The notes under the pieces were generated by a model. That model saw nothing but the letters and a program-made list of their open reading frames with translations, made no database searches and was not told where the DNA came from. The translations under genes were made by a program, and so were the position numbers. Below, in pieces: positions 43,661-49,043 of a stretch of 64,000 nucleotides of DNA (the stretch's first letter is position 1; each line of letters starts with the position of its first letter). This stretch comes from Escherichia coli (GTDB taxonomy: Bacteria; Pseudomonadota; Gammaproteobacteria; Enterobacterales; Enterobacteriaceae), in assembly GCF_048403405.1 (NCBI RefSeq), contig NZ_CP183129.1. One strand, written 5' to 3'.

Positions 43661-45925
43661 CTACCCGTTATCCACTGGCACGCCAAACCACTGATGATAC
43701 CAACGAGGTAAAATTTGCTCCCTGAAGCTGCTAATCCGCCAGCCTTGCGCTGAAAAATTGACCGTCATTTGCCCCTGATGAGGAGTATCAAGCCACTTAT
43801 AACCCTGTTGTTGATAGCGATGTTTAACTTTGCTTGAGGGCAGTCGCCATGCGTTATAGCGCGATGCCGATGCGAGTGCCACTTTTCCATTCACTCGCTG
43901 AATTAATGGCAACGATGATGAGGTATTACTGCCATGGTGAGGTACCTGAAGTAATGTTGCCTGCATTTGCTGCCAGTAACGGCTTAGCATCTTTTGTTCA
44001 GCGGGGGCTTCAATATCACCGGTTAGAAGAATGCTATTCGTCCCGTCATCAATCTTAACCACACAGGAATGGTTATTTCCTTTATCGTTGCTACCTTGTA
44101 AAGGCCAGTGCGCGCTGAAACTCAATCCTTGCCATTGCCACGCTTCGCCACGCACACAGGGCTGATGATGTTCCCAGTTTAACGGACTTCTGATCCATAA
44201 CATCGGCCATGTATGCAATATTGAGTCCAGCCCTCCCCGGTGATCCAGATGTTCATGACTCAGAATAACGCCTTCCGGTTCAAGATTATGCCAGTGGAGC
44301 CAGGGGATAATCAGTTGTTGCCCACTATCCCCTTCGGGCCAGGCCAGTCCCGTGTCATAGAGAATCGCTTTGCCGTTTCTGGCTATCACCATTGCCAGCC
44401 CTTGCCCGACATCAAGCATGTACACTTGCCACTCGTCAGGTCGAGGTTTTTGCCACAGCGGCCAGCACATCAGCAAGCCTACAGCCACACACATTGCTGG
44501 CAACGTTCGCCAGGCGTTTAATCGCCATACCACCAGTAAGAACCATGGGGAAAATGTTAGCCATTGCCAACGTTCAGCAATGTTGATCCACCCTTCCGGC
44601 AAACTCTTTAACCCCCAGAAAAGTAAAGCCAAAGACCGGTCGGCAAGAAACCATAATCCTTGTTCCAGAATAAGCGGCCCGCTTAAATGCACAACCATCG
44701 CGGCGAGGATCAACGGAACCGTGATAAATGTCACCAGGGGAATTGCAAAAAGATTTGCAATAAACGAGGTCAGACTAATGCCATGAAATATGACGATTTG
44801 CACGGGCATAAGCAGGAGGGTGATTCCCAGTTGCAGATGGATGAGGGAAACAACCGCACGCAATACCGGCGGCAGCTGCCACTCAGGACAGGGAAACCAC
44901 TGATACCAAAAAATCAGTGCCGCGACCGCAGCGGCAGAGAGCCATAAACTTTGCGAGAGAATGGCAACAGGATCCATCAACAAAATTGCCGCCAGACAAC
45001 ATATCCATACATCCCAGCCACTCCATTGTCGCCCACTTAACTTAAGCATTCCCCACATGGCAAGCGCCACCACGGTACGCAATGCAGGAGGTTGCATCCC
45101 AGTCAGCCAGGCATAAAAAGCAGCACAGCAGATTCCGCCAATTAATGGCATTTGCCATTGGATCCAGCGCCCGGGCAGAAAAACTTGCCCACCGCGAATG
45201 AGTCCGGCAGCCAGCAACGCCGCAAAAGCGATATGCAATCCCGATATCGCCATTAAATGCGCCGTTCCAGTATCGCGCATGATATTTTTGATTTCTTTGG
45301 GAACGGATAACCGTTCCCCCATACCTAAACCAAGAATAACCGCATTCCACATATAGGGTTGCAGCGTTGTTTGTAGTGACGCCAGATACTGTGCACGCAG
45401 GCTACAATTCGGTTCAATGACACTTGCCTGCAGAAATCGGCCGGTGAGCGGCTGATGCTGGGCAATGGCATAACGCTGGCTATCAAAGCCGCCATCATTA
45501 AGTTGGCCATGAACTGCACGAACTTTGAGTTTCATTGACCACAGTTGTCCAGCACAAACCGCTTGCGGAAGATATTCGCCATACAGCACGAGGCCTGGCG
45601 CAGGGAATATACGTCGACCTTGTAGATGAGTAATTTGACCGTAATGAGTGGTCATACCGTCAGTAGCAGTGATCTCAACAATTGCATCCTGCGTCGCGCC
45701 AGTTAACGTTTCTCCTGCCCACAAAATTTGCTTTGCTGCTAATATGCCCCAAACGAAAAACAGCAACGTCAGCGCGATATAACGGACAGTTTTAAAAGGG
45801 ATAAATACCAGTACGCAGGCGAAGACGGTCAGAGACGCAAGGGTTAATGTCCCAGGCAATTGTGGCAAAACCAGCAACGGAAAAATTCCGCAAATTATGC
45901 ATACGCCGACTGTCGTTATTTTCAT
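43661..45925 (-). CDS. ycaI: ComEC/Rec2-family inner-membrane protein
   Basis: 754 aa from MKITTVGVCIICGIFPLLVLPQLP; polytopic membrane region plus C-terminal metallo-beta-lactamase-like domain; internal Met of track ORF 43661..46003. Confidence 0.85.
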   Translation of the reverse strand: MKITTVGVCIICGIFPLLVLPQLPGTLTLASLTVFACVLVFIPFKTVRYIALTLLFFVWGILAAKQILWAGETLTGATQDAIVEITATDGMTTHYGQITHLQGRRIFPAPGLVLYGEYLPQAVCAGQLWSMKLKVRAVHGQLNDGGFDSQRYAIAQHQPLTGRFLQASVIEPNCSLRAQYLASLQTTLQPYMWNAVILGLGMGERLSVPKEIKNIMRDTGTAHLMAISGLHIAFAALLAAGLIRGGQVFLPGRWIQWQMPLIGGICCAAFYAWLTGMQPPALRTVVALAMWGMLKLSGRQWSGWDVWICCLAAILLMDPVAILSQSLWLSAAAVAALIFWYQWFPCPEWQLPPVLRAVVSLIHLQLGITLLLMPVQIVIFHGISLTSFIANLFAIPLVTFITVPLILAAMVVHLSGPLILEQGLWFLADRSLALLFWGLKSLPEGWINIAERWQWLTFSPWFLLVVWRLNAWRTLPAMCVAVGLLMCWPLWQKPRPDEWQVYMLDVGQGLAMVIARNGKAILYDTGLAWPEGDSGQQLIIPWLHWHNLEPEGVILSHEHLDHRGGLDSILHTWPMLWIRSPLNWEHHQPCVRGEAWQWQGLSFSAHWPLQGSNDKGNNHSCVVKIDDGTNSILLTGDIEAPAEQKMLSRYWQQMQATLLQVPHHGSNTSSSLPLIQRVNGKVALASASRYNAWRLPSSKVKHRYQQQGYKWLDTPHQGQMTVNFSAQGWRISSFREQILPRWYHQWFGVPVDNG

Positions 45926-46080
45926 GCACCCCTCCCTGTTTATGGAAAGTGTGCAACTTTGTTGAGCGGTTGTCTGGTGGGAGTTTTGCGTTCCCCGAGG
46001 CACGTTCAGAAGAATTTAACGAGAGGGTGAAAACTGTTCAAAACTCTGCGAGGCTGCTTCCAGTTCCAGATTAGAGAAAT

Positions 46081-46104
46081 GAAAAAAGCACCCGACAGGT
46101 GCTT
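46081..46104 (-). terminator. ihfB rho-independent terminator
   Basis: Minus strand reads AGCACC-tgtcg-GGTGCT then TTTTTTC, about 28 nt after the ihfB stop. Confidence 0.6.
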
Positions 46105-46131
46105 TTCTCGCGTTCAAGTTTGAGTAAAAAC

Positions 46132-46416
46132 TTAACCGTAAATATTGGCGCGATCGCGCAGTTCTTTACCTGGTTTAAAGTGAGGAACGTATTTTCCTTC
46201 CAGTTCTACTTTATCGCCAGTCTTCGGATTACGTCCGGTACGTGGTGCGCGGTAGTGCAAAGAGAAACTGCCGAAACCGCGGATTTCAATACGCTCGCCC
46301 TGCGCAAGAGTCGAGGCCATATGCTCCAGCATCTCTTTTACTGCATCTTCAACCGTCTTGGCGGGAATGTGCGATTGCTGGGTGGCAAGTCTTTCTATCA
46401 ATTCTGACTTGGTCAT
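46132..46416 (-). CDS. ihfB: Integration host factor beta subunit
   Basis: 94 aa, [34 protein letters not shown]... Confidence 0.95.
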
Positions 46417-46575
46417 GATTCCTCCGGTTCCTTAAAGGCAAATTAAGCGGCTGCTGTTGCTGCATTGATTAAGGGCGGCCGTAGCCGCCCTTAGTGCTTG
46501 ATTACAGGACGAAACCTGCAATCTGTCAAGTAAACTCAACAAACTTCGGAATAAAAATCCCGAAGAGTCAGAGAA

Positions 46576-48249
46576 TTACTCGCCTTTAGCTGCTTTGAAA
46601 GCTTCAGCCATTGCGTTGTTGGAGAAGTTTGCATCTTCCTGTTTGTTAACAGTTGCGATTGCATCTTTCTCGTCAGCTTCGTCTTTCGCACGAACAGACA
46701 GGCTGATTGCGCGGTTTTTACGATCAACGCCGGTGAATTTAGCTTCAACTTCGTCGCCAACGCTCAGAACCAGGGTAGCGTCTTCAACGCGGTCACGGGA
46801 TGCTTCAGAAGCACGCAGGTAACCTTCAACGCCGTCAGCCAGTTCTACGGTTGCGCCTTTAGCGTCAACTGCAGTTACTTTACCGGTTACGATAGCGCCT
46901 TTCTTGTTCAGAGCAACCCAGTTGTTGAACGGATCTTCTGCGAGCTGTTTAACGCCCAGGGAGATACGTTCACGTTCTGCGTCAACCTGCAGAACAACTG
47001 CAGCGATTTCGTCGCCTTTTTTGTATTCACGAACTGCTTCTTCGCCTGCAACGTTCCAGGAGATGTCAGACAGGTGAACCAGGCCGTCGATGCCGCCGTC
47101 AAGGCCGATGAAGATACCGAAGTCAGTGATAGACTTGATTTTACCTTCAACACGGTCACCCTTGTTGTGGGTTTCCGCGAACTGCTGCCACGGGTTAGCT
47201 TTGCACTGTTTCAGACCCAGGGAGATACGACGACGTTCTTCGTCGATATCCAGAACCATAACTTCCACTACATCGCCAACGTTAACAACTTTGGACGGGT
47301 GGATGTTTTTGTTGGTCCAATCCATTTCGGAAACGTGTACCAGGCCTTCAACGCCTTCTTCGATTTCAACGAAGCAGCCGTAGTCGGTCAGGTTGGTCAC
47401 GCGACCAGTCAGTTTGGTACCTTCCGGATAACGTTTAGCGATAGCTACCCACGGATCTTCGCCCAGCTGTTTCAGGCCCAGGGATACACGGGTACGTTCG
47501 CGGTCGAACTTCAGCACTTTAACAGTGATTTCGTCGCCAACGTTGACGATTTCGCTCGGATGCTTAACGCGTTTCCAGGCCATGTCAGTGATGTGCAGCA
47601 GGCCGTCAACGCCGCCCAGATCAACGAATGCACCGTAGTCAGTGAGGTTCTTAACGATACCTTTAACTTCCATGCCTTCCTGCAGGTTTTCCAGCAGCTG
47701 ATCGCGCTCTGCGCTGTTTTCGGATTCGATAACGGCACGACGAGAAACAACAACGTTGTTGCGCTTCTGATCCAGCTTGATTACTTTGAATTCAAGCTCT
47801 TTGCCTTCCAGGTGCAGAGTGTCACGCACCGGACGAACGTCTACCAGAGAACCTGGCAGGAACGCACGAATACCGTTCAGCTCAACAGTGAAGCCGCCCT
47901 TAACTTTGCCGTTGATAACACCGGTAACAGTTTCAGCATCTTCGTAAGCTTTTTCCAGCGTGATCCAGGCTTCGTGACGTTTAGCTTTCTCACGGGACAG
48001 CAGAGTTTCACCGAAGCCGTCTTCTACTGCGTCCAGAGCAACGTCAACTTCGTCACCTACCTGGATTTCCAGCTCGCCCTGGGCGTTTTTGAACTGCTCA
48101 GCCGGGATGGCGGACTCAGATTTCAGACCAGCGTCAACCAGTACTACGTCTTTGTCGATAGCAACAACAACGCCACGAACGATAGAACCCGGGCGGGTTT
48201 CGATTTCTTTTAAGGACTCTTCAAAGAGTTGAGCAAAAGATTCAGTCAT
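46576..48249 (-). CDS. rpsA: 30S ribosomal protein S1
   Basis: 557 aa, repeated S1 domains, starts [21 protein letters not shown]. Confidence 0.97.
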
Positions 48250-48359
48250 GTTTAATCTTCAGGTTTATATTTAACGTCCACCTGGCTCCATGCCGGATGG
48301 GGTTGTTTAACATACCCGCTGTCATTCCATTGCAACGGGGGTACTGCAAATTCGGTCGC

Positions 48360-49043
48360 TTATGCGAGAGCCAATTTCTGGCGCGCGTATTGTAGCGCTT
48401 TTTCAATCACTTGCTCAATGCTTAAGGTGGTGGAATCCAACACTAAAGCATCGGCTGCCGGAACCAGTGGCGCTACCGCTCGGTTACGATCGCGGTCGTC
48501 GCGTTCTTTGATCTCGGCCAAAAGGCGCTCAAAGTTAACACTAAAGCCCTTCTCCTGCAACTGTAGCATGCGGCGATGCGCACGTTCTTCCGAGGAGGCG
48601 TCAAGGAAAATTTTCACTGGCGCATCAGGGAATACCACCGTTCCCATATCGCGGCCATCGGCAATCAAGCCTGGTAATTCGCGAAACGCGCGTTGGCGAC
48701 GCAATAATGCTTCACGAACGCGTGGGAATGCCGCGACTTGTGAAGCAGCATTCGCCACTTCCTGAGTACGAATTTCGCCGCTGACATCTTCCCCTTCGAG
48801 GATCACTTCCAGATTGCCATTGGTCGACACAAAACGTACATCCAGATGGGATGCCAGCGGCACGAGCGCATCTTCCGATGCAACATCAACATGGTGATGT
48901 AATGCCGCCAGTGCCAGTACGCGATAAATTGCACCCGAGTCCAGCAGATGCCATTGCAACGCTTCCGCCATAGCCTTACACAAGGTGCCTTTCCCTGCAC
49001 CGCTTGGGCCATCAATGGTAATAACCGGGGCAATTGCCGTCAT
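48360..49043 (-). CDS. cmk: Cytidylate kinase
   Basis: 227 aa; P-loop GPSGAGKGT. Confidence 0.95.

Follow-up and report, generated by a model that had tools for sequence, protein, structure and literature searches.

The rpsA-ihfB spacer lies within a 64,000-nt stretch of the Escherichia coli contig NZ_CP183129.1 (assembly GCF_048403405.1), referred to below as the window, in which cmk, rpsA, ihfB, ycaI/comEC and msbA follow one another on the minus strand. Co-transcription of ihfB with rpsA, together with a separate ihfB promoter, is textbook knowledge. The spacer is 159 nt long, and the comparison with K-12 that the initial annotation had proposed returns 100% identity to MG1655 963,664-963,834. 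This identity makes K-12 RNA-end maps transferable to the window, where the MG1655 v3 coordinate equals 1,010,244 minus the window coordinate. The 801 bases around the hairpin described below find a match of at least 99% identity in 5425 of 5426 complete E. coli genomes. Among 5432 matches to the rpsA-ihfB region, four are held by plasmid-typed records, and some genomes contain two copies. As RNA, the whole spacer folds far better than shuffled sequences (z = -5.8) and forms four hairpins: hairpin 1, a weak hairpin 2, hairpin 3 and hairpin 4, the last being the rpsA-ihfB hairpin with which this analysis is concerned. The features are collected in Table 1.

Table 1. Features in and around the rpsA-ihfB spacer, in window coordinates.
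Feature	Position	Strand	Details
rpsA CDS (ribosomal protein S1)	48249..46576	-	
Hairpin 1	46544..46565	-	CUUCGGGAU-UUUU-AUUCCGAAG then UUUGUUGAGU; begins 10 nt past the rpsA stop
ihfB promoter, -35	46524..46529	-	TTGACA; read from the sequence, within the Kim 2012 promoter string
Hairpin 3	46500..46523	-	GAUUGCAGG-UUUCGU-CCUGUAAUC; overlaps the ihfB promoter spacer and -10
ihfB promoter, -10	46501..46506	-	TGTAAT, 17 nt after the -35; start 8-9 nt downstream
ihfB transcription start	46492..46493	-	MG1655 v3 963,751/963,752; first base of the stem
rpsA-ihfB hairpin (hairpin 4)	46470..46493	-	mRNA strand UAAGGGCGGC-UACG-GCCGCCCUUA; 10-bp perfect stem
RNA 3' end	46467	-	MG1655 963,777; ...GCCGCCCUUAAUC-3'; Term-seq and SMRT-Cappable-seq
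ihfB CDS (IHF beta subunit)	46416..46132	-	
ihfB terminator (canonical; internal comparison)	46081..46109	-	GC stem then UUUUUUC

The initial annotation described a perfect 9-bp inverted repeat with a cgta loop, placed between the two genes, after rpsA and before ihfB in the direction of transcription. The repeat is present as described, and the minus-strand orientation of all the genes confirms its placement. On the plus strand the 9-bp core reads AAGGGCGGC (46471-46479), cgta, GCCGCCCTT (46484-46492), and one further pair extends it to a perfect 10-bp inverted repeat, TAAGGGCGGC (46470-46479) and GCCGCCCTTA (46484-46493), around the same 4-nt loop. The repeat is real and not a product of chance: the window holds six perfect inverted repeats of at least 10 bp with loops of 3-8 nt, where first-order Markov simulations expect 0.3, and the rpsA-ihfB hairpin is a single-copy element among them. 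On the mRNA strand, the stem contains seven G-C pairs among its ten and is capped by a UNCG-type tetraloop with a C-G closing pair, a loop that exists on this strand only. The predicted free energy is -20.1 kcal/mol for the mRNA strand and -18.3 kcal/mol for the opposite strand, and the stem-loop appears in both the minimum-free-energy and the centroid folds of the spacer as well as of the ihfB 5' UTR.

The hairpin starts 83 nt past the rpsA stop codon and is followed by AUCAAUGCAG. The tail past its GC core, UUAAUCAAU, holds four U in nine nucleotides, which bears out the earlier remark that no U-run follows the palindrome. The element thus possesses the GC-rich stem-loop of an intrinsic terminator and lacks the approximately five or more U among the eight nucleotides directly after the stem, and a consensus terminator scan did not flag it. 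The hairpin has no curated-model match in Rfam at the gathering score, and a permissive scan of 45800-48600 returned no credible family. The best overlap, a PhrS fragment that scored 16.8 bits where the gathering score is 37 (E = 0.3), was rejected as a chance match to a GC hairpin. A REP/BIME-like repeated element was likewise rejected, the hairpin being single-copy in the window and in genomes; by eye, its sequence also appears unlike the REP consensus. Directly past the hairpin, an AUG at 46465 opens a 38-codon reading frame (MQQQQPLNLPL..., 46349-46465, minus strand) that extends over the start of ihfB in a different frame. Its AUG is kept only in the E. coli/Citrobacter/Salmonella-like group, and the frame was rejected as a gene on account of this poor conservation and of the lack of a Shine-Dalgarno sequence by eye.

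Published RNA-end maps of K-12 place a 3' end and a transcription start on the hairpin, so that the initial annotation's refuting condition of an element devoid of RNA ends does not hold. Term-seq gives a curated 3' end at 963,777 on the plus strand of MG1655, 51 nt upstream of the ihfB ATG, with the sequence ...GGGCGGCTACGGCCGCCCTTAATC (Adams et al. 2021, PMC7815308). This is the sole curated 3' end from the rpsA 5' UTR to the ihfB terminator at 964,165, and it is supported by an average of 9925 reads in LB at OD 0.4 and 5221 reads in M63 at OD 0.4, while it is absent from the list for LB at OD 2.0 (PMC7815308). Its Rho score of 1.34 is not significant and it lies outside the significant Rho termination regions, so that the end is bicyclomycin-insensitive, and its intrinsic-terminator score, at 14.4, exceeds the threshold of 3 (PMC7815308). 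Counted from the 10-bp stem, the position lies 3 nt further on, and counted from the GC core, 6 nt, compared with 8 nt from the core for the mapped 3' end of the ihfB terminator (964,165 / 964,164).

SMRT-Cappable-seq, whose full-length reads link 5' and 3' ends (Yan et al. 2018, PMC6131387), agrees with Term-seq on the position and adds the proportion of transcripts concerned. From the rpsA start at 961,720, 109 reads stop at 963,777, 67 pass it and 9 stop within 50 bp downstream; from the start at 961,861, the corresponding counts are 38, 15 and 0 (PMC6131387). Of the rpsA-promoter transcripts that extend as far as the hairpin, approximately 60-70% thus stop at this position and the remainder continues into ihfB, in keeping with the rpsA-only and rpsA-ihfB variants given in that work (PMC6131387). 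Two methods thus agree on an in vivo 3' end that is independent of Rho, although either one registers an end alike whether it arose by termination or by processing. The initial statement that the palindrome is no canonical intrinsic terminator stands as far as its weak U-tract is concerned; in vivo, the element is terminator-like.

Hairpin 1 presents the opposite case. With a 9-bp stem, it is terminator-like in sequence and was flagged by the terminator scan, yet no curated Term-seq 3' end and no transcript end in the SMRT-Cappable-seq entries retrieved falls on it. That the more canonical-looking hairpin is the one without a mapped 3' end indicates that sequence-based expectations are unreliable in this spacer. 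Relatives, including presumed Salmonella, keep hairpin 1 and do not keep its T-run. Hairpin 3 can form only on read-through rpsA RNA; across 12 genera 84% of its cells pair, with changes from G.U to A-U, and no significant covariation was detected in that set.

The initial annotation overlooked a near-consensus sigma-70 promoter for ihfB directly upstream of the hairpin. TTGACA-17-TGTAAT was found by eye on the minus strand between hairpins 1 and 4; a consensus promoter scan found nothing in the spacer, as its rule demands that the second base of the -10 hexamer be an A and so passes over TGTAAT. Three published datasets confirm the promoter, placing the start of ihfB transcription at the edge of the stem: 962,974 in v2 coordinates (Kim et al. 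2012, PMC3415461), 962,975 in v2 with a relative read score of 365 by Cappable-seq (Ettwiller et al. 2016, PMC4782308), and 963,751 in v3 by SMRT-Cappable-seq (Yan et al. 2018, PMC6131387). As checked on the K-12 sequence, window position 46493 is the U that opens the 10-bp stem and 46492 the A that opens the 9-bp stem. Because the start is the first base of the stem, monocistronic ihfB mRNA has the hairpin as its 5' end, and in the folded ihfB 5' UTR this hairpin is fully paired at the 5' terminus. These start sites and this fold place a hairpin at the extreme 5' end with few unpaired nucleotides, as in ompA-type stabilising structures. The earlier proposal of an RNA element tied to rpsA read-through holds in that the hairpin bears on how much rpsA transcription reaches ihfB, but it left out this second transcript.

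A second, fairly strong Cappable-seq start lies at 46445 on the minus strand (MG1655 v2 963,022), 29 nt upstream of the ihfB ATG, with a relative score of 112 and an enrichment of 7.6 (PMC4782308); it is absent from Kim 2012 (PMC3415461). No recognisable -10 precedes it, and the base itself varies between T and A in E. coli and E. albertii.

Conservation of the hairpin was followed in 80 gamma-proteobacterial ihfB loci with spacers of 60 to 240 nt. All of the 12 Enterobacteriaceae genera compared share AGGGCGGC-U(A/U)(C/U)G-GCCGCCCUU without change, and the eight inner stem pairs never vary in a covariation count. Both ihfB promoter hexamers are invariant in 10 of the 12, and in those ten the gap from TGTAAT to AAGGG is a constant 8 nt. 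The two U next to the stem are likewise invariant across the Enterobacteriaceae genera compared. The rest of the tail differs: UUAAUCAAU is found in E. coli, E. albertii and Citrobacter, while most relatives in the family carry the more U-rich UUGUUUAAU or UUGUUCAAG, which at five to six U in nine are borderline. Within E. coli, strain CT282 carries a C-to-U change in the 3' arm that turns a G-C into a G.U pair, so that pairing is kept on the mRNA strand only.

Beyond the family, structure is retained more faithfully than sequence. A stable spacer hairpin occurs in every one of 29 Enterobacterales, built from 21 different 7-bp inner helices. The longest perfect inverted repeat per spacer has a median of 8 bp, against approximately 4.2 in shuffles (73 spacers), a statistic that is a lower bound only, as stems with G.U pairs are under-counted. 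In 27 Enterobacterales loci, the nine nucleotides past the GC core contain a median of three U at the spacer hairpin and seven at the ihfB terminator of the same loci (paired Wilcoxon p = 8e-5); a normal U-run often follows the spacer hairpin in Vibrio, Pseudoalteromonas and Colwellia. Yersinia, Rahnella and Budvicia, with 60-nt spacers, place the hairpin about 5 nt past the rpsA stop, with no promoter recognisable by eye before it. The presence of the hairpin without a promoter in these short-spacer genera points to an ancestral role tied to rpsA or to read-through RNA. In short-spacer Enterobacterales, a motif, ACGGTAGTT(T/A)AGCTG, is conserved 1-10 nt past the U-poor hairpin (loci L016, L021-L026, L030-L032 and L041, in Yersinia, Rahnella, Hafnia, Edwardsiella, Pectobacterium, Photorhabdus, Proteus and Arsenophonus). 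The motif may serve as a promoter element or as a processing site.

Taken together, the hairpin is probably a leaky, U-poor terminator or 3'-end hairpin of rpsA that doubles as the 5'-terminal stem-loop of ihfB mRNA. On RNA from the rpsA promoters, it would most likely act as a weak Rho-independent terminator whose degenerate U-tract lets roughly a third of polymerases continue into ihfB. Such partial read-through would set a high ratio of S1 to IHF-beta transcripts while keeping ihfB coupled to rpsA, and the hairpin, once formed at the 3' end, would also protect rpsA mRNA against 3' exonucleases. Decay that depends on the 5' end proceeds through RppH and the 5' sensor of RNase E. RNA from the ihfB promoter would begin with a fully paired stem-loop, with zero single-stranded 5' nucleotides, and by analogy with ompA this stem-loop should impede RppH and 5'-end-dependent RNase E and prolong the life of the ihfB mRNA. 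Half-lives from Salmonella give such stabilisation indirect support: as cells move into stationary phase, that of ihfB mRNA increases from 3.5 to 4.9 min, compared with 2.2-2.8 min for ihfA throughout (PMC8942017). In an ORF swap at 7 h, the message with the ihfB UTRs was the more stable (3.38 vs 2.64 min; PMC8942017), a result that is only suggestive because the 3' UTR, promoter and chromosomal position change as well. Loci encoding the T21A variant of IhfB, presumed to be Salmonella, have the identical promoter and hairpin.

Termination is the preferred origin of the rpsA 3' end, but some of the evidence is shared with a different mechanism. The U-tract is poor and escaped the consensus scan, and an end so close to the stem, nearer the core than at the ihfB terminator, fits trimming equally well. 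The hairpin could then be a barrier to 3' exonucleases, at which ends or cuts made downstream are trimmed back by PNPase or RNase II to leave a stable rpsA mRNA. Trimming back to a stable hairpin is reportedly an established route to processed 3' ends, according to work attributed to Dar and Sorek in 2018. Besides the short distance from stem to 3' end, the tails of most Enterobacterales are even poorer in U than that of E. coli (GAAACGG, GUAACGG and similar), and the median read-through length of 149-192 nt means that many read-through reads end inside ihfB. It is this short distance and the very U-poor tails of other genera that keep the trimming model alive. Against it, read-through is not raised by bicyclomycin and the published terminator score is high; the close relatives carry the near-canonical UUGUUUAAU tail, and the two stem-adjacent U, those most important for termination, do not vary. 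A barrier of this kind is a possible but lesser explanation. It is still less likely that the function resides at the 5' end only, with the hairpin capping monocistronic ihfB mRNA against RppH and RNase E and the rpsA 3' end arising as a by-product. The coincidence of the start with the first stem base in three datasets, the invariant spacing from promoter to stem, the 5'-terminal position of the hairpin in the UTR fold and the Salmonella half-lives all agree with a 5' role. An exclusive one is at odds with the abundance of the 963,777 end in exponential growth, and the promoterless hairpins of Yersinia, Rahnella and Budvicia make it unlikely as the ancestral function.

The initial annotation also entertained a protein-binding site, for which no support was found. 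On this view, the palindrome would be a DNA operator for a dimeric protein at the ihfB promoter, for example in autoregulation by IHF through AATCAA motifs. The palindrome does cover +1 to +24 of the ihfB promoter, its sequence is invariant across the 12 genera, and it has on either side a copy of AATCAA, which forms the core of the IHF consensus WATCAANNNNTTR. The two copies, both on the minus strand, lie at 46498-46503 and 46465-46470, and the upstream one extends into the -10/+1 region. In place of a proper TTR, the upstream copy is followed by TAA and the downstream copy by GCA, and the downstream copy is missing in most relatives. An operator is made very improbable by features that belong to RNA: the UNCG tetraloop is confined to the mRNA strand, the hairpin recurs in distant genera although its sequence there is unrelated, the G.U pair of the natural variant can form in RNA alone, and RNA ends map precisely onto the structure.

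A more elaborate form of the two-transcript reading was also considered, in which the hairpin is a bifunctional switch point between two routes of ihfB supply according to growth phase. During fast growth it would end most rpsA transcripts and meter how many continue into ihfB; in stationary phase, a hairpin-capped and therefore longer-lived ihfB mRNA would come from the promoter that is nested 8 nt upstream. The hairpin may in addition terminate some ihfB-promoter transcripts at +26/+27, a self-attenuation that would release an RNA of 26-27 nt. If true, one structure would provide a compact means of shifting ihfB between its two supply routes, but this extension is tentative and on balance doubtful.

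The leaky terminator with a second role at a 5' end has relatives among known elements. The rplL-rpoB attenuator and T1 in rpsU-dnaG-rpoD are leaky intra-operon intrinsic terminators, and the rpsA-ihfB element resembles them in its GC hairpin between co-transcribed genes with a 3' end just after it, in its independence of Rho, and in a read-through, here of approximately 30-40%, that would set unequal levels of the upstream and downstream genes. It departs from them in its degenerate tail, which fails the consensus scan, and in the promoter embedded just before it, whereby the hairpin forms +1 to +24 of another transcript. The 5'-terminal stabilising stem-loops of the ompA and papA mRNAs, reportedly described by Emory, Bouvet and Belasco in 1992, likewise provide a stable hairpin from the first transcribed nucleotide with no single-stranded 5' segment. 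In ompA, however, the leader is longer and includes further determinants. The ihfB hairpin also belongs to the 3' end of the upstream gene's mRNA, and its stabilising effect would follow by analogy. Finally, among 3' hairpins that block exonucleases, REP elements and trimmed Rho-dependent 3' ends likewise place a stable stem-loop at the mature end of an mRNA with no U-run behind it; the rpsA-ihfB hairpin differs in being single-copy and in a 3' end that is not bicyclomycin-sensitive.

Both RNA ends were already on record for K-12 in public datasets, under the labels 'orphan' 3' end and 'novelTTS'. A literature search with the hairpin sequence, rpsA-ihfB, and ihfB stem-loop or mRNA stability retrieved no dedicated study and none discussing the double use; a Reg-Seq preprint, a ProQ paper and an mRNA-concentration paper had no bearing on the hairpin. 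The double use is a modest inference from known kinds of element, and the hairpin is an ordinary, largely known one. It opens no new question, and its use for annotation is as a caution: the principal 3' end in vivo lies at a hairpin that fails sequence-based terminator rules, and none lies at the more canonical-looking one 70 nt upstream. S1 and IHF-beta are produced at very different levels from a single operon, and the hairpin would be the point at which this difference is set at the level of RNA.
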